64,000 nucleotides of DNA from Nitrospirales bacterium (GCA_965223295.1 CBDCWC010000003.1:352001-416000); one strand, 5' to 3'; shown: positions 46,662-61,067, counted from the stretch's first letter. A program made the numbers and translations. The notes: a model not told the origin generated them from the sequence alone.

Positions 46662-46851
46662 GCGAGCGTTGAATAATGAGGTATCAAAGGCCATGGTTCG
46701 TCAGATAGCCCTTGGCGATCAACAACGTCGGGTCGGCTCAAAAAATTCCGTCCAGCAAGGCCACAGCCATTTTTGCGCGCGGAGCGTACTGGCACGACGT
46801 GAGCACGGAAAAATGGCGAGAACGCCACTGACGGCTTTTTTCAACAGACCC
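46662..46851 (-). repeat. Family-B MITE-like repeat
   Basis: Highly similar to 47742-47932 and, inverted, to 58002-58188. Confidence 0.8.
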
Positions 46852-47613
46852 CTAAAGCATATTCTCGATCATTTGAATTTCTCTTGCCGGCATCTTAAAC
46901 CGCGCAAATGCATTGTGAGCAAGGAGCCGCACCCGAGGATACCTGGGTGTTCCTGAGGAACGCGTGACATAGGAGACTTGGTGAATTCGTATGGCATTCT
47001 GGGCAATCTGCGCCGGAGCATTCCACAGAGTTAACAACACTGCGCTCAATTGCGGCACTTCGGCTAATACTCCAACCAGCATGCCGGTTAAACGCTGAAG
47101 ATCCAAAGAACAAATATCTCGCCTGGAAACAGCCTTCTCCATAATATCTGGAACACTCACAGCCAAGAGGACTGGTGCACAATATTTTTCCAATTGTTTC
47201 GCCTTTTCACTCATACGAGCTACCAAACGTTTCACCAAGGCCTGCTCAAAGAACTCATCGAATTCATCATCTTTTTCGTCACGCAGAATAGCCTGAGATC
47301 TCTTCACTGAACCCTGCGTCGATTGAATAACCGTCACTTCTACAAAGAGTCGGTGTCCATCGACATAGCATTCTAAATCAGCGGTCCTGCCACTTGATGC
47401 TTTTAAAAAAGACAATGAAAATCCCGCCTCAGCCAGGAAAGAGGCGGTTTGAATTTCTGCCTGCGCCGATGTACTCTGCCCTGAGGGGAACTGACTGATT
47501 TGCGCCCACAAGTCAGCGAGCCGATTCTGGCTATCTCCATCAGGACAACATCCCATCAATCTCTGCCACTGGTCATGAACAGGCAAAAGATAGCCTGAAA
47601 GGTTTTCGTTCAT
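46852..47613 (-). CDS. Hypothetical protein (possible PD-(D/E)xK-like fold)
   Basis: AAGGAGG RBS; AEIQTASFL...TADLECYVDGHRLFVEVT. Confidence 0.65.
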   Translation of the reverse strand: MNENLSGYLLPVHDQWQRLMGCCPDGDSQNRLADLWAQISQFPSGQSTSAQAEIQTASFLAEAGFSLSFLKASSGRTADLECYVDGHRLFVEVTVIQSTQGSVKRSQAILRDEKDDEFDEFFEQALVKRLVARMSEKAKQLEKYCAPVLLAVSVPDIMEKAVSRRDICSLDLQRLTGMLVGVLAEVPQLSAVLLTLWNAPAQIAQNAIRIHQVSYVTRSSGTPRYPRVRLLAHNAFARFKMPAREIQMIENML

Positions 47614-47741: not shown

Positions 47742-47932
47742 GGGAGTGTTGAATAATGATGATATCAAGAGTCATATTTCGCCAGGAAGCCCTTGGCGAT
47801 CAACCGCGTCGGGTCGGTTCAAAAAAATCCGTCCAGCAAGGCCACAGCCATGTTTGCGCGCGGAACGTACTGGTATGACGTGAGCACGGAAAAAGGGGGA
47901 GAACGCCGCTGACGGCTTTTTTCAACAGACCC
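47742..47932 (-). repeat. Family-B MITE-like repeat
   Basis: Ends GGGAGTGTTGAATAA ... TTTTTCAACAGACCC form an imperfect terminal IR. Confidence 0.8.
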
Positions 47933-48040
47933 ACAAAATAAGAAACCCGTCTTTATGGCAACGGCCTACTAGTTCTCTGACTCGAGTTTTGTCATACGAG
48001 GCCTGCGAAGATGGCCAGCCACAGGCTTGAGCAGTTTTTC

Positions 48041-48472
48041 CTAGTCGCGTGAGCGCTGAATGGTCTGATAAATCACTTCCAATAATTTTTCCAGCTCTAC
48101 GCTCTTCGTAAACACCTGACAGACTCCTTCGCGTTGAACTTCATCAACATTGAACGCACCAGTATAGGCCGTCAACAAAATGATCGGCACGGAAGGACGC
48201 CGTTGGCGAATATGTTTCGCCGTCTCTACGCCATTGAGACCCGACATTTTATAATCCAAAATGACGACGTCGGCCAAAACCATTGTATGGGCTTGTTCAA
48301 TGATTGACTCCCCTGATTCAAACTCATGAACCTCGAACCCTTTTCGCCGCAAACGCCTCGCCAAACTGGTCCGCACAACCTGGTCATCATCGACAATACA
48401 GAGATGATGCCGGGACTGTTGATTACGGCCCAGCTTACCGGAAAGATGCTCGGGATTATTGCTCACAGACAC
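48041..48472 (-). CDS. Single-domain response regulator receiver
   Basis: IVDDD, ILDYKM (phospho-Asp), LLTAY, FTK. Confidence 0.88.
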   Translation of the reverse strand: MSVSNNPEHLSGKLGRNQQSRHHLCIVDDDQVVRTSLARRLRRKGFEVHEFESGESIIEQAHTMVLADVVILDYKMSGLNGVETAKHIRQRRPSVPIILLTAYTGAFNVDEVQREGVCQVFTKSVELEKLLEVIYQTIQRSRD

Positions 48473-48552: not shown

Positions 48553-50109
48553 TTAGCGTTCTCGCTTGATTCCCAGCTTTTTTAAACGGCTCCTGAGAGT
48601 GCTAGGATTCAAGCCAAGCTGCTTGGCGGCTCCTAACGGTCCATCAATACGCCATTCACAGACTTTCAGGGCTTCTTGTATCCGAGACCGTTCCATGTCC
48701 TTCAAGTTGGTCGACGTACTGCTTACTACACGAGAGGAATGGCTCGGGAAAAAGGCATCATCAATCGTGAGCAAGTCTGAATTCGAAAGGATCATGGCCC
48801 GTTCAATAATATTTTTTAACTCCCTAATATTACCCGGCCAATGATACTCCAACAATTTTTGTAAGGAAGCGTCATCAATATCCTGGCAAGGGCGCTTGAA
48901 TTCCAGCCGGTTTTTTTCCATGAAATGTCGAACCAGTAAAGGAATATCTTGCGGCCGCTCACGAAGCGGTGGGACTTCAATGGGAAAAACGTGCAGTCGG
49001 TAAAATAAATCTGAACGAAATCGCCCTTCTTCCATGGCTTTACTCAATTCAGCGTTCGTCGCAGCAATAATTCTGACATCCACTTCCAAACTCTGAACAC
49101 TTCCCACCCGTTCAATAATTCCATCCTGCAGCACCCGCAATAATTTGGCCTGAGCTTCTAGAGGCATTTCTCCAATTTCATCTAAAAATAAGGCTCCCCC
49201 ATTGGCCAGTTCAAATTTCCCTGGTCTTAGCTGTTCCGCTCCAGTAAATGCTCCCTTTTCATGCCCAAACAATTCACTTTCCACCAATCCAGAGGGGAGT
49301 GACGCACAGTTAACCCGAACAAAAGGCTTTTCATGTCTCGGGCTTAACTCGTGGATGAACCGGGCTAGTAATTCTTTACCCGTTCCCGTTTCACCGGTGA
49401 TGAGAACCGAAGTATTGGTCGGAGCTACGGCTTGTGCTAACTCTATGATATTTTTAACCTTTTGGCTCTTTCCAATCATCGCCCCAAAATCATGCGAAAT
49501 TTTTATCTCTTCAAGTAAATAGGCATTTTCGCGGGCAAGCTTATCTCGTAAACGGCGAATTTCTTCATAGGCTTGCACATGATCAATTGCTAGTGCGATT
49601 TGTTTGGCTACCTGAGCCAAAAATTCCACGTTCTCTGGATCTGGCTTTCCAGACTCAACACTGCCGATGTTCAGAGAACCAAGACAGCTGTCACCAACCA
49701 TCAGTGGAAGGTTGATCATGCGCCCTAAGCCTTCTTCCCGATAATATGCATCCTCTAAAAACATTTGTTCTTGTTGAATATGGGGACGGATGTGTATTTG
49801 GCGATTGGCATACACCCAACCCATCGCACTACCTTCACGTGGAATGACCGCATCGCACTTCAAACGTACGATAGGCATGCTGGTCTCAACGGCATAAAAT
49901 CGAAAGGCATCAATATCTGCATGATAGAGAGTGATCCCTGCGCGCTCCCAGGAAACTATTTGTTTAATATGACCGGCAATAGCTTTCCAGAGACTTTCCG
50001 TGTCTTGCTGAAAATTGAGGACATTCGTGACCTCAAGTAGCGTTCGATAAAAGGTTTGTTTGTGAGGATTAATGGACTTGCCTGATAAGGAAGGAATATT
50101 CAATGACAC
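48553..50109 (-). CDS. GAF-domain sigma-54-dependent activator (FhlA/NifA-like)
   Basis: GAF, GETGTGKE, ELFGHEKGAFTGA, FLDEIGE, WPGNIREL, C-terminal HTH. Confidence 0.93.
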   Translation of the reverse strand: MSLNIPSLSGKSINPHKQTFYRTLLEVTNVLNFQQDTESLWKAIAGHIKQIVSWERAGITLYHADIDAFRFYAVETSMPIVRLKCDAVIPREGSAMGWVYANRQIHIRPHIQQEQMFLEDAYYREEGLGRMINLPLMVGDSCLGSLNIGSVESGKPDPENVEFLAQVAKQIALAIDHVQAYEEIRRLRDKLARENAYLLEEIKISHDFGAMIGKSQKVKNIIELAQAVAPTNTSVLITGETGTGKELLARFIHELSPRHEKPFVRVNCASLPSGLVESELFGHEKGAFTGAEQLRPGKFELANGGALFLDEIGEMPLEAQAKLLRVLQDGIIERVGSVQSLEVDVRIIAATNAELSKAMEEGRFRSDLFYRLHVFPIEVPPLRERPQDIPLLVRHFMEKNRLEFKRPCQDIDDASLQKLLEYHWPGNIRELKNIIERAMILSNSDLLTIDDAFFPSHSSRVVSSTSTNLKDMERSRIQEALKVCEWRIDGPLGAAKQLGLNPSTLRSRLKKLGIKRER

Positions 50110-50402: not shown

Positions 50403-50439
50403 AAAAAAGCAGGGGGCGACGGGTGTCGCCCCCTGCTTT
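50403..50439 (-). terminator. nxrB terminator
   Basis: GCAGGGGGCGAC-loop-GTCGCCCCCTGC with T tract on the minus strand. Confidence 0.85.
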
Positions 50440-50466: not shown

Positions 50467-51756
50467 TTACAGCCAGTTCACCCGTTCGGCCGGACGGATG
50501 TAAATCGGCTCTTCCACTTGCTGCCGCACCGCTTCCTTGCCCGACTTGTTGAAGCCCAATACCGTGTCGTTATACATCTCAAACTTCCGACCGTGAATTT
50601 GGGTCTCAAACACTTTCGGCCCCGGAATGACGTCATACCGGAAGATGATCTGTTGGCTCGCTCGCCATAACTGCAGCACCGCCAACAATTCCCGGCTCGG
50701 CACCAAATACTTCTCAATGGCATTGTCCACCCCCGGCCCAAACATCTGCCGGATGTAGCCCCGCGGCGCTTGCCGCGGCGGAATGTAATACCCATTGGGC
50801 TCCGTGCCCCATTGCGGGTACAACGGCAACGCCACTTGTTCCACCCGAATCGCATAATACAATGGATTCCAGCGGTCTTCCGCCCATAACCCGTCATCGC
50901 CCACTTTGACGAGCCCTTGCAGACGGATCTTGCCCACGCACGCCGCCATACACCGCGTTTCCATCGGCTCCCCACCCGTCAGCGGATCTTTGCCCTCTAC
51001 CCGCGGATAGCAGGCAATACACTTCTCACTGACCCGGGTGGTCCCCCGATACATCGGCTTTTTGAACGGACATTGCTCCACACATTTTTTGTACCCCCGG
51101 CACCGGTTTTGGTCAATTAAGACAATCCCGTCCTCCGGCCGCTTGTAGATGGCCTTTCTTGGACAGGCCGCCAAACAGCCCGGATAGGTACAGTGGTTAC
51201 AGATGCGTTGCAGATAGAAGAAGTACGTTTCATGCTCCGGCAAGCTGCTGCCGGTCATTTTCCAGGGTTCTTCTTTCGTGAACCCCGTCTTATCCACGCC
51301 TTCGACAATGGCCCGCATCGACGTCGCCGTGTCTTCGTAGATGTTCACGAAGCGCCATTCTTGGTCCGTCGGGATGTACCCAATGGCCGCTTGGCCGATT
51401 TTGGCCCCCGCGTCAAAGATCGTCATCCCTTCAAACACCCCATACGGCGCATGGTGCTTGCGGCCCACCCGCACATTCCACACCTGCCCGCCAGGATTGA
51501 CTTGCTCAATCAACTGCGTGATTTTCACATCATAGAACTGTGGGTAGCCCCCATAGGGCTTCGTTTCCACATTGTTCCACCACATGTATTCCTGCCCTTT
51601 GCTGAATAGCCACGTCGACTTATCCGCCATCGAACAGGTTTGACACGCTAAACACCGATTGATGTTGAACACAAATGCAAATTGCCATTTCGGATGCCGC
51701 TCCTCATACGGATACAGCATCTTCCGGCCTAAGTGCCAATTATAGACTTCTGGCAT
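50467..51756 (-). CDS. nxrB: Nitrite oxidoreductase beta subunit (Nitrospira type)
   Basis: MPEVYNWHLGR..., NINRCLACQTC, CNHCTYPGCLAACP, 429 aa. Confidence 0.96.
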   Translation of the reverse strand: MPEVYNWHLGRKMLYPYEERHPKWQFAFVFNINRCLACQTCSMADKSTWLFSKGQEYMWWNNVETKPYGGYPQFYDVKITQLIEQVNPGGQVWNVRVGRKHHAPYGVFEGMTIFDAGAKIGQAAIGYIPTDQEWRFVNIYEDTATSMRAIVEGVDKTGFTKEEPWKMTGSSLPEHETYFFYLQRICNHCTYPGCLAACPRKAIYKRPEDGIVLIDQNRCRGYKKCVEQCPFKKPMYRGTTRVSEKCIACYPRVEGKDPLTGGEPMETRCMAACVGKIRLQGLVKVGDDGLWAEDRWNPLYYAIRVEQVALPLYPQWGTEPNGYYIPPRQAPRGYIRQMFGPGVDNAIEKYLVPSRELLAVLQLWRASQQIIFRYDVIPGPKVFETQIHGRKFEMYNDTVLGFNKSGKEAVRQQVEEPIYIRPAERVNWL

Positions 51757-51836
51757 GGTAGTGATTCCTCCATTTGGTTATAGATGCATTCAGCATAATT
51801 AATTTGGTTACCAGATAATTCATTTTAAGATTAAAG

Positions 51837-51905
51837 GGAGGCTGGGGGGAGGTGTAAGCAATGTTTCTTTCCAGACGTCAATCAAGAAAAGAACCCCCAG
51901 CCTCC
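51837..51905 (-). ncRNA. Candidate structured antisense RNA element in the nxrA-nxrB spacer
   Basis: 12-bp perfect stem whose loop is the reverse complement of GGAGGTGTAAGCA-ATGTTTCTTTCCAGACGTCAA (an nxrA-type RBS plus MFLSRRQ codons). Confidence 0.55.
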
Positions 51906-51918
51906 AAATCATGATAAT

Positions 51919-54900
51919 TTACACTTTAATCTTAATGTGGTCGCCTTTGAGCCATTTCACCATGAACTCATTTTCCTGCCCCGGCGTAAACCCGGTCCGG
52001 ACCGGCTCCCACGGACCCCGGCCGCCAATGCCGCCGTCTTCCGCCTTGGTAATCCGGATGAGACATTCTTTCGGCACCGTATTGACCGCATGGTTGTCCA
52101 CTTGGTACCCAAATTTAAATTTCCACGCCACCGCATGTTTGCCTGGCAGCGAGTCGAGTTGCTGAATTGGCATCAGCCAGTCCCGCGTAAAGGCCTGTTG
52201 CGCCCCATACCGGAAGTTCGATTGATACCCCGTGTCCATGGCAATCGCCCGCCCGTCCGGCCGCGTTTCATGCCCTTTCACGGATTTGGCCGTGGCCACA
52301 TAGGGCGCATGTTTGGCCATCGTCACATGGTACGGATAGGCCGGGTTGTACTTCGCCCGGATCATCAACCGCGCCACCTTGTAATACGGGTCACTGGGCT
52401 TCCACCCCCGATACGGCCGATCCACCGGGTTCCCATCCACGTAGACATAGTCCCCGTCGTTGATGCCCCGATCTTTGGCCGCTTGCGGGTTGATATGGAT
52501 TTGATGTTCCCCGACCCCTGGCGTCCGCTTATCCATCCGATACGCATCCCCAAAGTTCGACTCATACATCTGCACCCAGTCATTCACCGACCATTGACTA
52601 TGCACCCGATGCCGCGTCTTCGGCGTGACACAATAGAACTGATACCCCTTCTCCCATAACGGATTGGAGTAGCGCTTGATTTCCTGCCACGGCAACTTGA
52701 TGTTCCGAATGGTCTTATCATCATGATGTTGCGCCGTGATCGGCACCCCATAGTCATCCGGCCGCACATACGGATTCGACGACATGATCGCATTGGGCAA
52801 GTACGGCGTCGCTTCCGTCCCTTCCCGATGCGAAATGAGGTTTTCCCCGTACTCAATGGCTTCCGGCTCCACCCGGTAATTCTCATACCGGCCCGTCCGC
52901 GTCCATTGCGGCTTCGACTCGTTGGTTTCTTCCCAGAACGGATGGCGCGGATACGTCCGGCACATCACCATCCAGCCCTTCTCTGACTTCAACATCGTGT
53001 CCACACTGTAGCCATACCCCGTGGTGCTGGCATCCAACAACCGCTGCACATACACATCCACCCGGTTGTCATAGACAAACTTGAAGTAATCCCGGAACCG
53101 CCCGTCGCCCGTCATTTCGGTCAACTTGGCCGCCACCCCGGCTACCGTATCCAGATCGTTCCGCGTGTCATATAAGGGCCGGATGCCCCCCTTCCACACT
53201 TGGAACCAGGGATTCGACACCGTCGCCGTATGCTCTGGATAGGTGAACTCCATCCACGTATTCACCCCAAACGCCACGTCATTATGATTGACGTCCGAGG
53301 TCATTTCCACATCTTGCGTCACCAACGTTTCAATGTGCGGATCCACGTTCTTCACCATGTCATAATGGTGTTTGGCGTTGTTCAACACATTCACATTGGC
53401 CACCCACCGGAATTTACTGGGGGTGGGCATATGCGTCTTCCCCGTAAACACCCGCCGGCCATACTTCGGCGTATTGACAATCAACGCCGTATCCCCATGG
53501 TTCCAATAGGCCACTTCTTCGCCATAATAGTAGCCTTTGACATGGATCTCTTTGCCATGCACCGTTGGATCCGTGGTGATCTTAAAGGGGTTCTCCCCCG
53601 TATGCGTCCCGAGCCCGCCGCCGCCCCATGGCGTGGCGTTCCAGATCCCCGCTTTATAGTTACCGGCCCAGGTATGCTGCCCCGTGCCGAATTTCCCCAC
53701 ATTCCCCGTCACAATCAACACCATCGCCGCGCCACGCGCGATAATGGTTTGATGGAAATAGTGGTTGGTGCCTTCCCCGTTGTGAATGGCCGCCGGCTTG
53801 ATCGTCCCCGAATCCCGCGCCCACCGCACAATCAGGTCCTTCGGCGCCCGATTGATTTGATGCACCGTATCCAAGTCATAGTCCTGCAGATGCACCTGAT
53901 ACATTTGCATCACCGGCATCACGTCCACCTCCCGGTTGTTCAACAACTTCACCCGGTAGGTCCCCGTCAACGCTGAGTCAATGCCGCTCTTGCGATAATG
54001 CCAGCCCACCAATTCCCGATGAATCGGCACCGCCTGATTCTTGTTCAGATCCCACACCATAAAGCCCCCCAACCGGGCCAGCTTCGCAGGATCCAACGTT
54101 TGCATTTTCCCTGAATAACTCTTACTGAAGTCCGGGAGTTGATAGTCTTTGATCACTTCCCGGGGGTCCAAGTACTGCAACGTATCCGTCCGCACCAACA
54201 ACGGCATGTCCGTGTACGCTTGACAAAAATCATGGTCATACATGTTTTCATCAAAGATGATTTTACAGGCCCCTAAAAACAAGGCCCCGTCTGTCTGTGG
54301 CCGCACTGGAATCCAGTAGTCTGCCCGATAGGCCGTCGGGTTATATTCCGGCGTGATCACCACCACCCGGGCCCCCCGCTCAATGCTCTCGAGCTTCCAA
54401 TGCGCCTCCGGCATCTTGTTTTCCACGAAGTTCTTCCCCCAGCTGGTGTTCAGCTTCGAGAACCGCATGTCATTCATGTCCACATCCGAGGCTTGCACGC
54501 CGTTCCAGAACGGATGCGCGGGGTTTTGATCCCCATGCCACGTATAATTCGACCAATACCGGCCCCCTTGCGCTTGGTCCGGCTTGACTTTGCGAATGTA
54601 GGTATCCAGCAACGCCCCGCAGCCCCCATTCATCCGGGTGATCCCCATTTTCCCAATCACCCCCAAAATGGGCATCCCCGCCCGGAACTTAAAGCAGCGC
54701 GTGGCCGCCCCTTTGCTCATCTCAATCATTTCCGGTGGATAGCCTTGCTCCCGCATCCGACGGGCTCCCGCTTCCCCCGAATACCGCTCGGCGATGATGA
54801 TCATCGCTTTGGCCAGGTACGTAAACGCCGTATCCCAGCTCACCCGCAACATGTCATCCAAGTACCGCGCGTTAAACTTATATTTCGTCATCACCGCCGG

Positions 54901-55356
54901 CGTAAACTCCGGACTGCCGGCATCCATCCAGGCCTTCCAGCCCCGCCGCATCAACGGCCCTTTCAGCCGATACGGCCCATACACCCGCCGATGCATCGTG
55001 AACCCCTTCAGACACATCCGCGGATTATGCGCAAACGTCCCCCGGTTGCCGTAGAGATCTTCGTAGGTTTGATGGTCGTAGTTTTGCTCCACCCGCATGA
55101 CCACCCCGTTGCGCACAAACGCCCGGATTCGGCAGGCATGCGTGTCATTCGGGGAACAACACCACGTAAACGAGCTGTCATAGCGATATTGATCGTGATA
55201 CACCCGCTCCCAGGACCGGTCGGGATACTCCCCCAGGGGATTGCCCACTTCGATGACCGGCTGCAGCGCCGTCAAGGCCAGCGCCTTGTCCGCTAAGGCC
55301 ACCGCCGCTACCGTGCCGGCGGAGACCTTTAAAAATTGCCGTCTAGAAAGAAACAT
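51919..55356 (-). CDS. nxrA: Nitrite oxidoreductase alpha subunit (periplasmic, Tat-exported molybdoenzyme)
   Basis: MFLSRRQFLK twin-Arg signal, CSPNDTHAC Fe-S motif, 1145 aa, upstream of nxrB. Confidence 0.96.
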   Translation of the reverse strand: MFLSRRQFLKVSAGTVAAVALADKALALTALQPVIEVGNPLGEYPDRSWERVYHDQYRYDSSFTWCCSPNDTHACRIRAFVRNGVVMRVEQNYDHQTYEDLYGNRGTFAHNPRMCLKGFTMHRRVYGPYRLKGPLMRRGWKAWMDAGSPEFTPAVMTKYKFNARYLDDMLRVSWDTAFTYLAKAMIIIAERYSGEAGARRMREQGYPPEMIEMSKGAATRCFKFRAGMPILGVIGKMGITRMNGGCGALLDTYIRKVKPDQAQGGRYWSNYTWHGDQNPAHPFWNGVQASDVDMNDMRFSKLNTSWGKNFVENKMPEAHWKLESIERGARVVVITPEYNPTAYRADYWIPVRPQTDGALFLGACKIIFDENMYDHDFCQAYTDMPLLVRTDTLQYLDPREVIKDYQLPDFSKSYSGKMQTLDPAKLARLGGFMVWDLNKNQAVPIHRELVGWHYRKSGIDSALTGTYRVKLLNNREVDVMPVMQMYQVHLQDYDLDTVHQINRAPKDLIVRWARDSGTIKPAAIHNGEGTNHYFHQTIIARGAAMVLIVTGNVGKFGTGQHTWAGNYKAGIWNATPWGGGGLGTHTGENPFKITTDPTVHGKEIHVKGYYYGEEVAYWNHGDTALIVNTPKYGRRVFTGKTHMPTPSKFRWVANVNVLNNAKHHYDMVKNVDPHIETLVTQDVEMTSDVNHNDVAFGVNTWMEFTYPEHTATVSNPWFQVWKGGIRPLYDTRNDLDTVAGVAAKLTEMTGDGRFRDYFKFVYDNRVDVYVQRLLDASTTGYGYSVDTMLKSEKGWMVMCRTYPRHPFWEETNESKPQWTRTGRYENYRVEPEAIEYGENLISHREGTEATPYLPNAIMSSNPYVRPDDYGVPITAQHHDDKTIRNIKLPWQEIKRYSNPLWEKGYQFYCVTPKTRHRVHSQWSVNDWVQMYESNFGDAYRMDKRTPGVGEHQIHINPQAAKDRGINDGDYVYVDGNPVDRPYRGWKPSDPYYKVARLMIRAKYNPAYPYHVTMAKHAPYVATAKSVKGHETRPDGRAIAMDTGYQSNFRYGAQQAFTRDWLMPIQQLDSLPGKHAVAWKFKFGYQVDNHAVNTVPKECLIRITKAEDGGIGGRGPWEPVRTGFTPGQENEFMVKWLKGDHIKIKV

Positions 55357-55705
55357 TGAGAATACCTCCTTTTAAAAAATTCTCACATGAGAAAATAAAA
55401 GACCATCTCTCATTGCGACAGGCTCCCCCTGTCGTGCTTCTTCAACCTCCCTCCATCCTTAATGGACGATAAAAGTGAACAATTTATAAAAACGAGACAC
55501 ATATCCTATCTAGGCAAAAAATTCCCATGGAACATTGTGCAATCCGTATTCCCCAAAAACATAAACATGGAAAATACTTGTATGTTATTGATATTTCATA
55601 GAATTTAATGCACGTACCTGAACGTTCCTCCATATAGCGAAACATAGAAACATCGAAATTTCGAGGATGCCGGCAAGGTGTCATTGGAATTTCAAGGCCT
55701 ATAAA

Positions 55706-55722
55706 TTAGGGGTCAGACTCGA
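55706..55722 (+). repeat. REP half-site upstream of RAYT
   Basis: TTAGGGGTCAGACTCGA, identical to the arm of the downstream palindrome. Confidence 0.75.
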
Positions 55723-55784
55723 CTTTATTTCAGGTTCTTGATATATTCCAGCCACAAAACTCTAGTTTACAAGAAAGAGCTTCT

Positions 55785-56477
55785 ATGGCCCGCTTACCCC
55801 GTTTTTTTGTGCCCGGCATTCCCCTTCATATCATTCAACGGGGAAATAATCGCGGAGCGCTGTTTCATCACATTAATGACTACAATGTCTATCGTGAATG
55901 GCTGCAAGAAGCAGCTCAATCACATGGTTGCGCCATTCATGCCTATGTCTTAATGACCAATCATGTGCATCTCCTACTTACGCCAACACATCAAGATAGT
56001 TTGCCAAAGACTTTTCAGTCGTTAGGCCGCCGCTACGTTCAGTATTTCAACGCCACGCACCAACGCACAGGAACGCTTTGGGAAGGACGCTATCGGGCCA
56101 CGTTAATTGAAAGTGAGGCCTATCTTTTAACCTGCTGCCGGTACATTGAGCTCAATCCCGTTCGGGCCGAAATGGTCAGACGTCCTCGTGACTATCGATG
56201 GTCCAGCTATCATTATCATGCTGAAGGAAAACCAGATCCCCTTCTCACCCCTCACAGCCTCTACCAACGCCTCGGCAGCACAACGACTGCGCGACAACAA
56301 GCCTATCGAGCCCTCTTTCGCCAGCATTTAAGCGGAGAAACGTTAGACACCATTCGAGAGGCCACCAACAAGGCCTGGGTATTGGGGACTGAAAAATTCA
56401 AAGATCGCCTGGCCAAGAAACTTGATCGCCGCGTGGCACCTTTGCCGCGAGGCCGGCCCTCATTAGAAAAAGATTAA
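55785..56477 (+). CDS. REP-associated tyrosine (Y1/HUH) transposase, RAYT
   Basis: HIIQRGNNR, MTNHVHLL (HUH), GTLWEGRY, YIELNPVRA, YRWSSY. Confidence 0.9.
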   Translation: MARLPRFFVPGIPLHIIQRGNNRGALFHHINDYNVYREWLQEAAQSHGCAIHAYVLMTNHVHLLLTPTHQDSLPKTFQSLGRRYVQYFNATHQRTGTLWEGRYRATLIESEAYLLTCCRYIELNPVRAEMVRRPRDYRWSSYHYHAEGKPDPLLTPHSLYQRLGSTTTARQQAYRALFRQHLSGETLDTIREATNKAWVLGTEKFKDRLAKKLDRRVAPLPRGRPSLEKD

Positions 56478-56493
56478 TCCCCCTGACTTAACA

Positions 56494-56534
56494 TTAGGGG
56501 TCAGACTCGAATTTAATTCGAGTCTGACCCCTAA
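56494..56534. repeat. REP/REPIN-like perfect palindrome
   Basis: TTAGGGGTCAGACTCGAATT-T-AATTCGAGTCTGACCCCTAA. Confidence 0.85.
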
Positions 56535-57302: not shown

Positions 57303-57926
57303 TCATTGAGCCGCAGAGACTTCGCCTCGCTTTATCATCCAAGCCACCTCAGCCACACGCTTGCCCAGGGCCCAGGCCTCCGCTTTTTCCGTATCGTTAA
57401 TGCCTGGGCTTTCACCTTCAGTAGTCGCGGAGGCCCCGAACGCTCCACCATCACTTACCACAATCATCTGATTCCCCAACATTGCGGCTAAAATGGTTAA
57501 CATCGTGACTTCTTTGCCACTGGAAACTTGCCCTCCGGTGGCAAACGCCGCCCCGACCTTATTTCGCATTTTAAATTCGGGAAACACACCAAACTCAAAT
57601 TGCCAGCGATCAAAAAAACTTTTCACCTCACCAGACATATTGGACCAATACACCGGCGACCCGACCACTACGGCATCACTACCGAATAACAGATCTGCCG
57701 TGACATTTCCTACCGCATGTAGCAACACGCGCGTACCAGGAACAGCCTCGGCTCCAGCCACCACACTCTGAGCCATCGTTTGAGTATTGCCCGACAAGGA
57801 ATGATACGCGACGAGAACCTGAAGAGTGTCCGACTGAGACTGGACTTGGGCTGAAACCTGTGAACATCCAAGGCTCAGGACAATCAACCCTAGAAACAAC
57901 CACAGAACTGGTGGAGTGCGCATCAA
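57303..57926 (-). CDS. Exported flavodoxin-like (WrbA-family) NAD(P)H:quinone oxidoreductase
   Basis: YHSLSGNT, GSPVY, GAAFATGG; N-terminal signal-like sequence. Confidence 0.85.
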   Translation of the reverse strand: MMRTPPVLWLFLGLIVLSLGCSQVSAQVQSQSDTLQVLVAYHSLSGNTQTMAQSVVAGAEAVPGTRVLLHAVGNVTADLLFGSDAVVVGSPVYWSNMSGEVKSFFDRWQFEFGVFPEFKMRNKVGAAFATGGQVSSGKEVTMLTILAAMLGNQMIVVSDGGAFGASATTEGESPGINDTEKAEAWALGKRVAEVAWMIKRGEVSAAQ

Positions 57927-58001
57927 AATTCAGAAGAGCCAGAAGAAGGAACCACACGAAGACTCATGGCACAAGGAAGGATGGACAAAAAAATACTGAA
58001 T

Positions 58002-58188
58002 GGCCCTGTTGAAAAAAGCCGCCAGCGGCGTTCTCGCCATTGTTCTGTGCTCACGTACTGCCAGGACGCTCCGTACGCAAAAATGGCTGTGGCCTTGCTG
58101 GACGACATTTTTGAACAGCCCTGAGGCTGATGATGGCAACCCGCTTCGGGGCGAAATATGGCCCTTGTCTTCATTAATCAACACTCCC
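58002..58188 (+). repeat. Family-B MITE-like repeat
   Basis: CTGTTGAAAAAAGCCGCCAGCGGCGTTCTCGCC...CTCACGTAC...TCAACACTCCC. Confidence 0.8.
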
Positions 58189-59559: not shown

Positions 59560-61067
59560 TCAGCATCCATGCCGACAAAAGGCATTCATAAGGAGTCTAC
59601 GGACACTCCAAGCCCAGCGCATACGTCCCGAACTCGTTAGGTCATTCGCTCTCACCTTGATGACATAGGTCCCACTCTCCGGCAAGGTAACCTCCCGCTG
59701 CGTCGGGCCAAACGACGAGGTCACTTGCACTCCGGTGGGAGAGAAAACAAAAGCCTGTGGGAAAGGAGCCCCAGCGAACCCCGTATCTGCCAGCGTGATC
59801 GCCACCACCTGACCCGCCTGCCCACTGAAGGTAAACTCTTCCTCTTCACCAGCTATATCAATGGACCCTGACACTAAATCCCCACATTGCAGACTGGCGC
59901 CCGTGGGGGTATTAATCACAATAGTATCTGGGACACTATCAATCGTCCCATCATTGACGATGAGTTGCACCACGTACGTTCCCGGTAGATCCGCCACAAA
60001 GGTGAGATTCACAAGCGTCGGATCCGAAAGGGTGGCATTGCTCCCTGCTGGTTTCGTGGTCAGCGACCAGGCAAAGGTGAGCGGATCATTGTCCGCATCG
60101 CTTGAGCTGCTCCCATCCAATTGCACCGTATCGTCTACTTGTACGTTTTGATTCGACCCTGCCTCAGCCACTGGACGTAAGTTTTCGGTATCTATTACGA
60201 CCGTATCGGGCAGACTGTCCTCCGTCCCGTCATTGACGATCAGTTGCGCCACATACATCCCTGGCAGATCCGCCACAAACGTTGGCATCACCGCCGTCGG
60301 GTCAGACAAGGTGGCCGCGCTCCCCGCCGGGACCGTGGTCAGAGACCATTGAAACGTCAACGGATCGCCATCTACATCACTCGACCCACTCCCATCCAAC
60401 GTCACTGTGTTGCCCACATCTACCATGGACTGATCTGGACCGGCATCGGCCACAGGCGCCGTGTTGCCGGTCGTGATGACAACTTCCTCCGGCAAACTAT
60501 CTTCCTGGCTATCATTCACAATCAGCTGGAACTTATATTCTCCTGGAACATTGGCGAAAAACGTTGGCATAACAGTGGACTGATCCGACAGCACTGCGGC
60601 GCCTCCAGAAGGCTGAGAGGTAATCTGCCATTTAAATGTCAAGGGGTCCCCATCCGGATCGTTCGACCCACTCCCATCCAACGCCACCGTGTCACCAACT
60701 CCCACGGTCTGATCTGGGCCCGCATTGGCAATGGGTTTTCTATTGGAGGCTTCACAGGCGTTCGGTCAACCGGGAATCCAGACTGCCCGAAAGCTTCCGT
60801 GACAAAATTGACGTCGGTCATATCAATAATGCCACTGTCATCCGTGTCCGCACAAAGACATAGAGGATTGGCAGATAGGTCAGCACCAAAACAACTTCCG
60901 ACAATAGACGTATCCAATATATTCACAGTTCCGTCATTATTCAGGTCAGGATCAGGGGCAAGGGCAAGCAATGTCGAGGGCCAGACCACCACCAGTAAGA
61001 CCAGGAAAAGACTGGCAAAAGCTTTACTCAGCGTTTTCAAAGAATCCTGATTTACATTTCTGACCAT
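59560..61067 (-). pseudogene. Secreted dockerin plus 3x PKD/REJ-like plus PPC-like domain protein, frameshifted
   Basis: Signal peptide; DLNNDGTVNILD and DTDDSGIIDMTD loops; frameshift near 60750 into PIANAGPDQ; three AGxDQ..LDGSGSxDxDGDPLTF units; second frameshift near 59628 (GTYALGLECP*). Confidence 0.75.

Follow-up and report, generated by a model that had tools for sequence, protein, structure and literature searches.

Nitrite-oxidising bacteria depend for their energy on nitrite oxidoreductase as the key enzyme. It accounts for about 4% of the peptide spectral counts of N. marina (PMC8115632), and the roles of nxr paralogues are called speculative in a passage of another study (PMC12342949). 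The window analysed here, a stretch of 64,000 nucleotides from a Nitrospirales bacterium (G000:C3:352001-416000), carries an nxrAB operon with a hairpin between its two genes, and this hairpin contains an inverted copy of an nxrA translation start. The question is whether such an element acts on its own operon, on a sister copy of it or on neither.

An inverted nxrA start region in the spacer of one nxrAB copy

The genome contains two nxrAB copies, copy 1 in the window and copy 2 at G000:C3:1466510. Their NxrA proteins are 99.65% identical and their NxrB proteins 100%, and the DNA agrees to 99.6% over the 3.45 kb from the SD to the nxrA stop and to 99.85% from just upstream of nxrB to a common putative terminator behind nxrB, which is absent from the list returned by the terminator scan. 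The promoter regions of the two copies are unrelated, as are the nxrA-nxrB spacers with lengths of 162 nt in copy 1 and 46 nt in copy 2. Features of the copy 1 locus are collected in Table 1.

The first-pass annotation had described a hairpin beginning 13 nt past the nxrA stop with 12-nt arms GGAGGCTGGGGG (51837-48) and CCCCCAGCCTCC (51894-905), enclosing on the + strand an inverted copy of an SD followed by ATG TTT CTT TCC AGA CGT CAA (51848-81). This description holds on the sequence: the arms are perfect complements at the distance given, and the inverted copy consists of an SD, a 7-nt spacer, ATG and six further codons, matching the operon's own nxrA start (55336-69) at 28/34 positions with both coding differences synonymous. 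The same relationship was returned by a repeat finder as an inverted pair, I4, of 35 nt and 83% identity, and the window has exactly two occurrences of a 21-nt degenerate start pattern, for which 100 shuffles give an expectation of 0. In the mRNA the order is thus the nxrA stop, 13 nt, GGAGGCUGGGGG, 45 nt and CCCCCAGCCUCC.

Table 1 Features of the copy 1 nxrAB locus (positions counted from the first nucleotide of the window)
Feature	Position	Strand	Remarks
nxrA copy 1 (hairpin-bearing paralogue)	51919..55356	-	1145 aa, DMSO-reductase type II alpha, Tat-type start MFLSRRQFLK
nxrB copy 1	50467..51756	-	429 aa, type II DMSO-reductase beta; protein 100% identical to copy 2
nxrA-nxrB intergenic spacer, copy 1	51757..51918	-	162 nt
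Own translation-initiation region of copy 1 nxrA, GGAGGTATTCTCA-ATG...	55336..55369	-	28/34 identical to the loop copy
GC-rich hairpin and T-run after nxrB, likely operon terminator	50403..50436 (approximate)	-	read from the sequence
Conserved 69-nt hairpin element	51837..51905	-	predicted -32.8 kcal/mol alone; covariance model R1 95.5 bits
Outer stem, 5' arm, GGAGGCUGGGGG in mRNA	51894..51905	-	
Outer stem, 3' arm, CCCCCAGCCUCC in mRNA	51837..51848	-	
Inner stem, 5' strand UUCUUUUC	51886..51893	-	U-rich, partly imitates codons 2-4, predicted to mask part of the antisense stretch
Inner stem, 3' strand GGAAAGAA	51865..51872	-	antisense to nxrA codons 2-4
Predicted unpaired 16-nt internal loop ACAUUGCUUACACCUC	51849..51864	-	antisense to copy 2 nxrA SD..AUG
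Full 34-nt antisense stretch	51848..51881	-	putative target G000:C3:1466497-1466530, outside the window
Sigma-54-dependent activator gene (GAF + Sigma54_activat + HTH_8), adjoins copy 1	48553..50109	-	
Stand-alone response-regulator receiver gene	48041..48472	-	
Sigma-54-like -24/-12 element (GG-N10-GC)	55539..55553 (hand-converted)	-	197 nt upstream of the copy 1 nxrA ATG

Predicted fold and accessibility of the hairpin

The whole nxrA-nxrB spacer including the hairpin has a predicted folding energy of -42.1 kcal/mol (z = -2.92), with 3/200 shuffles equally stable. The antisense stretch had been called an exposed loop and this is borne out for one half of it only. When folded within 361 nt of mRNA, the 16-mer antisense to the SD..AUG region (51849-51864) has a mean unpaired probability of 0.91, whereas the part antisense to codons 2-7 lies mostly inside the inner stem with an unpaired probability of 0.37.

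A single design was recovered in 21/21 variants from 20 genomes when each was folded singly. It comprises outer and inner stems of 11-13 and 8-12 bp, the inner one with a small apical loop, and a 3'-side internal loop of 13-16 nt made up of anti-AUG, anti-spacer and anti-SD sequence, which is predicted to be single-stranded in all 21. The stretch antisense to codons 2-4 is covered by the U-rich 5' strand of the inner stem. If pairing began at an antisense seed and went on by strand displacement, an open loop next to a masked remainder is the layout one would expect, and in these models the internal loop at 51849-51864 is the likely seed for pairing with the start of copy 2. The predicted stability of the hairpin and the masking of half of its antisense stretch mean that full pairing would require strand invasion.

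G·U pairs in the stems are confined to the nxr-sense strand, as in the G063 variant, where a C-to-U change in the 3' arm leaves a G·U pair on that strand alone, and the nxr-sense strand folds better than its complement in 15/20 distinct variants with a mean gain of 1.9 kcal/mol. A consensus structure from RNAalifold on a plain MAFFT alignment (A1) was set aside, since a misaligned C-run led it to pair the 5' arm with an inner CCUCC, and per-sequence folds, a hand-given structure and a model-fitted alignment were used instead. Another alignment (A4) was left out because it included reverse-strand and start-region matches.

Distribution and conservation of the element

A search with the stem pattern recovered the element in 19/50 genomes of the genus (14/30 of the high-quality ones), sometimes twice in a genome, and one variant added by eye (G063) brings this to 20/50. 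It starts 7-13 nt from the nxrA stop in every case. We also ran the covariance model R1 over 151 genomes of the order, 13 of which contain the element: G000, where the one match makes it single-copy, 10/16 further genomes of genus g1 and 2/4 of a second genus, g11. The model found none in the sister genus g8 (0/34), in the remaining genera of the family or in three other families of the order (0/88). Many draft genomes break at nxr genes, and a missing match in these does not equal absence. All five complete g8 genomes that were checked have a single nxrA with a short plain spacer and lack the element. A one-off inversion scar, which the first-pass annotation had named as a way for the idea to fail, is excluded by this distribution.

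In the genomes read, the hairpin always sits on accessory loci, namely copy 1 and its counterparts of types a (g1) and x (g11) and the divergent types b and y. It is never found on the c2 type, to which copy 2 belongs, or on its g11 counterpart z, the spacers of which have ordinary hairpins with the start-region copy absent. No Rfam 15 family overlaps positions 51837-51905 even at E <= 1, and searches of the literature for antisense, small-RNA or hairpin elements at nxr genes turned up no description of it.

Conservation was measured over five genomes in which the hairpin-bearing nxrA has at least 96% protein identity to that of the window. Over the 10 pairs the element is 82-97% identical, against 56-88% for the four-fold degenerate sites of nxrA, 58-82% for the rest of the spacer and 58-93% for the 5' leader. 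Judged from these comparisons the hairpin is under purifying selection, being far more conserved than four-fold degenerate sites. With the hand-given structure, 96.1% of the cells pair in a MAFFT alignment that had not been fitted to that structure. In the model-fitted alignment of 21 sequences, which leans towards structure, 94.7% pair against 58-75% with the 3' partner slid, 7/20 pairs show two-sided changes and the covariation score was reached by 0/500 shuffles. The outer stem of the g11 variants is GGGAAGUCGGG/CCCGGCUUCCC at x, replacing GGAGGCUGGGGG/CCCCCAGCCUCC, and GGGGCCAGGG/CCCUGGCCCC at y, so that on the sequences the stem is fully replaced in this genus by compensatory changes. Taken as a selected RNA structure that carries anti-start-site sequence, the element is in our view very probably real.

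Pairing with the sister start and with the operon's own

A paralogue that matches the loop better than the operon's own nxrA had been predicted, and a search of the genome for such a start located it at copy 2. The copy 2 start reads GGAGGTGTAAGCA-ATG TTT CTT TCT AGA CGT CAA and agrees with the loop copy at 33/34 positions as against 28/34 for the own start. The sole difference, TCC versus TCT, becomes a G·U pair in an RNA duplex. When the 16-nt target of the open loop was sought in the 3.78-Mb genome with at most one mismatch, only the copy 2 start and the element's own DNA were found. At two mismatches there is one site, at C2:1436056, which heads a frame of 5 codons, is not a gene and was discarded.

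Co-folding of the G000 hairpin with the copy 2 start yields a continuous intermolecular helix of 36 bp and a predicted net energy of -27.1 kcal/mol after both partners have unfolded. The corresponding net value for the own start is -7.3 kcal/mol (duplex -40.0 kcal/mol), and for 200 shuffled targets the net gain is 0.0. This ranking recurs in all 12 g1 genomes where both starts are known: duplexes with c2 have energies of -51.3 to -60.3 and net energies of -18.3 to -28.5 kcal/mol, and those with the own start -37.5 to -41.4 and -3.1 to -11.4 kcal/mol. The two g11 genomes with both starts known agree, the x hairpin reaching a net -22.2 to -25.8 kcal/mol with z and -4.5 to -5.4 with its own start. 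The paralogue is thus the better predicted partner by 8-20 kcal/mol net in 12/12 g1 and 2/2 g11 genomes, which are kin so that these counts overstate their independence. The hairpins of the b and y types gain only 0.0 to -0.9 kcal/mol with their own divergent starts and -6 to -14 with other copies, and in a matrix of swapped partners each hairpin prefers the c2 or z start of its own genus over that of the other genus.

These energies bear on an alternative to action on a sister, namely that the element folds onto the start of its own mRNA and thereby limits initiation on copy 1 nxrA or couples its translation to decay. A partner in cis has a large advantage in local concentration, and the own start has the SD and the 19 nt from CAAUG onward in common with the target, enough for the predicted duplex given above. 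The open 16-nt loop has four non-wobble mismatches to the own spacer, however, the net energies favour the paralogue in every genome compared, the own starts of the b and y types do not pair, and in g11 the loop tracks the spacer of the paralogue and not its own. Feedback on the own start therefore looks, in these models, much weaker than action in trans in every genome with both starts known, and we consider it improbable in spite of a hint of ancestral self-matching which is described below.

Covariation between the loop and its putative target

The first-pass annotation had also proposed that related nxrA-nxrB spacers be inspected for loops that covary with their targets, and the spacers that contain the element do show this. 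The c2-type start (GGAGGTGTAAGCA-ATG...) makes up 38/59 of the starts listed, from 36 g1 genomes and with one GTATGCA variant, and the starts of the hairpin-bearing g1 loci have seven different spacers between them. In g1 the loop and the c2 start both read GTAAGCA. In g11 the loop of the x locus reads GCATGCA, as does the start spacer of the hairpin-less paralogue z, and the own start of x has ATCTTC or GTTTTC. Read from these sequences, the difference between GCATGCA and GTAAGCA is a case of two compensated changes between two molecules. Codon 6 follows the same pattern, being CGT in loop and c2 and CGG in the own start in group A, and CGG in loop and c2 and CGT in the own start in group B. 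The match between the loop and a paralogue and the presence of the element in related spacers are both points at which the idea could have failed, and it failed at neither.

The correspondence is not perfect throughout. Group B loops match c2 at 31/34 positions with two transversions in the SD-AUG spacer, and match the copy 1-type start of group A at 33/34, for which the predicted energies are -21.2 and -23.9 kcal/mol against -18.8 and -21.5 with c2. When a start that fits the group B loops (GGAGGTATTNNCA...) was sought in 50 genomes of the genus, the matches were confined to those loops and to group A's copy 1 starts, and none of the group B genomes searched has such a start. Genomes with an a-type NxrA 85-88% identical to that of the window have loop spacers ATTCGCA or ATTAGCA, which differ from c2 at two or three positions and are one step from ATTCTCA, the copy 1 start spacer of the window's group. 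The likeness of the group B loops to the copy 1 start of group A means that the loop may sometimes be templated by, or aimed at, the start of its own operon.

Gene conversion at the DNA level between starts and loop could be an alternative source of the covariation. Transitions that keep a pair as G·U outnumber those that break one by about 10 to 2 (p ~0.07, hand-calculated under a simple site-count null), a wobble bias which is not significant and whose direction is also expected from a mutation bias of the transcribed strand. The c2 start is invariant in 11/11 g1 genomes where four-fold sites are near-saturated (median identity 0.49), as against four spacers among five genomes of the single-copy genus g8 at a median identity of 0.83. 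Since g1 genomes in which no element was found, G016 and G012 among them, also have the invariant start, the constraint need not stem from the hairpin.

Structural, coding and DNA-level explanations

The conserved stem invites a purely structural reading in which the hairpin would set the nxrA:nxrB ratio as a partial terminator, a barrier to RNases or a processing site. Its loop content would then be a passenger that arose long ago when a start region was duplicated in inverted orientation, and that gene conversion has from time to time kept similar. A long GC-rich stem placed 7-13 nt past a stop codon is what such a role would look like, about 8/20 variants have at least five T directly after the stem (G003, G060, G061, G045 and the b types, read by eye), and exchange of DNA is real at these loci as seen in the nxrA copies homogenised by conversion over 3.45 kb. 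The variant in the window has only CUUUAAUCUU as its tail, however, and is not called as a terminator. A passenger loop should moreover decay in the manner of four-fold sites, yet it lies in an element that is 82-97% conserved, its anti-SD..AUG part is predicted to be single-stranded in 21/21 variants, and it follows the spacer of the paralogue across two genera despite complete turnover of the stem. Spacers of the c2 type make do with ordinary hairpins without a start-region copy. On this evidence we regard a structural role with a passenger loop as unlikely.

Two further readings place the function elsewhere than in the nxr transcript. With its perfect SD, spacer and ATG and a frame of 18 codons, the + strand could act as a small gene (SD + MFLSRRQSRKEPPASKS) or, when transcribed from an antisense promoter, as a decoy start region. 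The frame is however not conserved among the variants, ranging from 7 to >22 aa with an ATA start in three b-type variants, a frameshift in G045b and an S-to-P change in G014, G009 and G063, and the scan for sigma-70-like promoters found none near the spacer on either strand, while the G·U pairs of the stem would become A×C mismatches in the complementary RNA. Equally the inverted pair I4 brackets nxrA and a REP-associated tyrosine transposase is encoded just upstream (55785-56477), as might be expected of inverted repeats enabling inversion of nxrA or of a REP-like mobile palindrome. Yet the repeat is closer to the distant paralogue (33/34) than to its partner across the gene (28/34), every locus read out in full has the same orientation with none inverted, and the element is present once in the genome, its stems bearing no relation to the two REP palindromes nearby (55706-55731 and 56494-56534). 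The small gene or decoy is in our judgement very improbable and a DNA-level element more improbable still, and the mini-ORF, the invertible segment and the REP element were rejected as candidates on these grounds.

Regulatory context and RNA data

Copy 1 is followed by the genes for a sigma-54-dependent activator and a response-regulator receiver (Table 1), and a GG-N10-GC element, which resembles the sigma-54 -24/-12 consensus, lies 193-203 nt before the ATG in 6/6 copy 1 or a-type loci examined. No such element was found in the 420 nt before copy 2, whose neighbours are pntAB and endonuclease III genes with no regulator beside it. The one promoter type scanned for around the spacer was the sigma-70-like one mentioned above. 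The genome encodes RNase III (238 bits), and a search with PF17209 found no Hfq although the genome is 100% complete, which fits an antisense RNA acting through a long duplex.

Public RNA runs contain 0.10-0.18 of the words of the locus, with contigs from relatives covering the coding parts of nxrA and nxrB. Runs X1, X2, X5 and X3 have no cover at 51774-51807 and are uninformative on transcription of the hairpin. Cover at 51842-51909 derives at least partly from the c2-type 5' leaders of relatives, the loose ends in X2 resembling a c2 leader, and one X2 contig that extends from the end of nxrA to the start of nxrB over a 92-nt spacer represents the c2-type locus of a relative.

Proposed mechanism

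The reading that we favour, with a probability of roughly 0.55, is that an antisense element embedded in the nxrAB mRNA, and possibly processed from it, represses the translation of sister nxrA in trans. What the analysis shows is the sequence with its predicted fold, the closer match of the loop to the paralogue, the conservation and the covariation of loop and target, and from these we infer that the element is transcribed, pairs in the cell and represses, and that RNase III is involved. The element would be a selected structured RNA within the transcript of the regulated copy 1 paralogue, with its sigma-54-type promoter and GAF-domain activator, and its two-tier hairpin would offer a single-stranded internal loop of 13-16 nt antisense to the SD, spacer and AUG of copy 2. 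Upon transcription of copy 1 this loop would nucleate on the copy 2 start region, and strand displacement would then extend the pairing to about 34-36 bp over the SD and start codon. Since such a duplex would block binding of the 30S subunit and provide a substrate for RNase III, the synthesis of copy 2 NxrA would fall as copy 1 is expressed. Either the operon mRNA in full or a 3' fragment arising from it by processing or termination could be the acting RNA.

The outcome would be dosage compensation for near-identical paralogues such as those of this genome, and a switch of isoenzymes for paralogues of 85-88% identity. Isoenzyme switching would make little sense in G000 because its NxrA proteins are 99.65% identical, and dosage control would be the purpose instead. 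Repression in trans thus provides a concrete hypothesis for the choice among near-identical or divergent nxrAB copies in Nitrospira-type genomes and, if true, describes a regulator born of an inverted duplication of the ribosome-binding site of its target, with covariation between two molecules across two genera.

Relation to known systems

In mechanism the closest known analogue is s-SodF/sodN (PMC3919588). There too the antisense stretch has no promoter of its own and follows a coding region on the sense strand. Its target is the start of the mRNA encoding another enzyme with the same function, and the two enzymes are made reciprocally (PMC3919588). The nxr element shares this placement and an extended, covarying complementarity to the start of another mRNA. 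According to the same report s-SodF has 19 nt of complementarity, a demonstrated processed RNA of ~90 nt and two non-homologous isoenzymes (PMC3919588); the nxr element, in contrast, is known from sequence only, has 34 nt which form an inverted copy of the SD and first codons of the target, lies between two cistrons with its seed in the internal loop of a two-tier hairpin, and is directed at a true paralogue.

Other comparisons are more distant. In icaR of Staphylococcus aureus a downstream anti-SD motif pairs with the SD, blocks translation and invites RNase III (PMC3868564). The icaR contact is made with its own mRNA, whereas the best predicted partner of the nxr element is a sister mRNA, the SD of the same transcript ranking second in G000, in 12/12 g1 and in 2/2 g11 genomes. 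The hly 5'UTR-prsA2 3'UTR pair of Listeria (PMC8722363) and sRNAs derived from 3' ends (PMC9438474) resemble it in that a protein-coding transcript also regulates another mRNA by base pairing, and differ in having short contacts between mostly functionally coupled but non-paralogous genes. Intrinsic terminators and intercistronic stabilisers likewise have a GC-rich stem after a stop, and some relatives of the window's element have a T-run, but a 45-nt structured loop with conserved, start-complementary content sets the nxr element apart, and neither the window's variant nor most variants of group A and the a type have a T-run. The nxr element is not homologous to s-SodF or icaR. The pairing motif of icaR is reportedly a short UCCCCUG, and the hly-prsA2 contact is said to be activating or stabilising rather than SD-occluding. 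The present case differs from s-SodF and icaR in its operon-internal position, its inverted copy of the target's start, its conserved two-tier hairpin and a true paralogue as the putative target.

A possible hierarchy of paralogues and the N. marina proteome

A wider reading, possible though we hold it to be doubtful, is that in this marine Nitrospira-like family a hierarchy of antisense contacts between nxrAB mRNAs selects which nitrite-oxidoreductase isoenzyme is made. The module on each accessory paralogue would be an 'anti-start', an inverted copy of the SD and first codons of its target, with a- and x-type modules addressing the conserved c2 or z paralogue and b-type modules addressing the a type. 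Codon 6 of the b-type loop is CGT as in the a-type start, and the predicted net energies of b-type hairpins are -11 to -14 kcal/mol for the a-type start, -7.5 to -9 for that of c2 and 0 for their own. The y-type modules of g11 likewise show no pairing with their own start, and x and z are about equal as their partners. Loops and targets would co-evolve by compensatory changes, and expression of one operon would stoichiometrically remove the mRNA of the next via RNase III.

Published protein counts from N. marina can be set against the model of repression in trans. Three NxrA copies are reported there, of which NxrA_3 is the most abundant, and when oxygen is low the number of NxrA_1 copies per cell increases about 2.3-fold, from 845 to 1924, with NxrA_3 dropping from 4860 to 3741 and NxrA_2 from 1154 to 851 (PMC8115632). 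We assigned the paralogues by mapping the published copy-specific peptides onto the loci. The NxrA_3 peptides map to the hairpin-bearing a type, the NxrA_2 peptide to the hairpin-bearing b type and the NxrA_1 peptides to the targeted c2 type. This reciprocity fits the prediction of the model as a correlation from one experiment, and repression of c2 by the hairpin-bearing transcripts would, if true, explain the reciprocal changes of NxrA_1 and NxrA_3 at low oxygen.

Constraint on the nxrA start and the leader of the targeted paralogue

The first codons of nxrA (ATG TTT CTT TCT AGA CG) are unvarying at synonymous sites in the window's genus (g1), its sister genus (g8) and the second genus carrying the element (g11), a pattern that extends to genomes with one nxrA copy and no hairpin. 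The start of the nxrA coding sequence is therefore constrained in its own right, separately from the hairpin element. In leaders of the hairpin-less paralogue type (c2, or z in g11), a small conserved hairpin lies ~10-15 nt upstream of the SD, both in copy 2 and in relatives, with sequences such as GGAC..GTCC or GGCCGA..TCGGTC; CTTAGGAGGTG in these leaders shows no variation across g1.

Variants of the hairpin locus in relatives

Genomes with three nxrAB loci carry a receiver-domain gene inserted between the hairpin and nxrB (L016 of G020, with L037 similar), and there the nxrA-nxrB spacer measures 650-658 nt. An additional loop copy in genome G061, which the stem-pattern search of the genus genomes failed to pick up, combines features of both hairpin types and hints at exchange between a-type and b-type hairpins.

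Repeats and mobile elements around the nxr locus

The transposase gene directly adjoins the copy-1 nxrA promoter region on its upstream side and is flanked by nearly identical palindromic units, with which the nxr hairpin has no sequence kinship. Two direct copies of a further repeat family are 88% identical to each other, and an inverted copy, 83-84% alike, lies 10-11 kb off across the nxr locus; the family overlaps ORFs without a family match (46852-47613 and near 57923-58174). The 237-nt tandem units are 71% alike at a spacing of 279 nt, and the product of their ORF is an internally repeated protein.

Features in the window and in related loci
Feature	Location	Strand	Details
Repeat family	window 46682-46856, 47763-47937, 57981-58112		~110-175 nt per copy
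REP-like units	window 55706-55731 and 56494-56534		TTAGGGGTCAGACTCGAATT / AATTCGAGTCTGACCCCTAA
REP-associated tyrosine transposase gene	window 55785-56477	+	NF047646, 81.8 bits
Tandem pair of 237-nt units	window 59908-60423		within ORF 59560-60705 (-)
Copy-2 5' leader (with small hairpin)	L003:1430-1500		
Stand-alone receiver-domain gene	L016:5112-5528 (G020, a-type locus)		138 aa; PF00072, 69 bits
Additional loop copy	G061:C9:44933-44973		tail b-type (…CAATATAGAA), SD-ATG spacer a-type (ATTCGCA)
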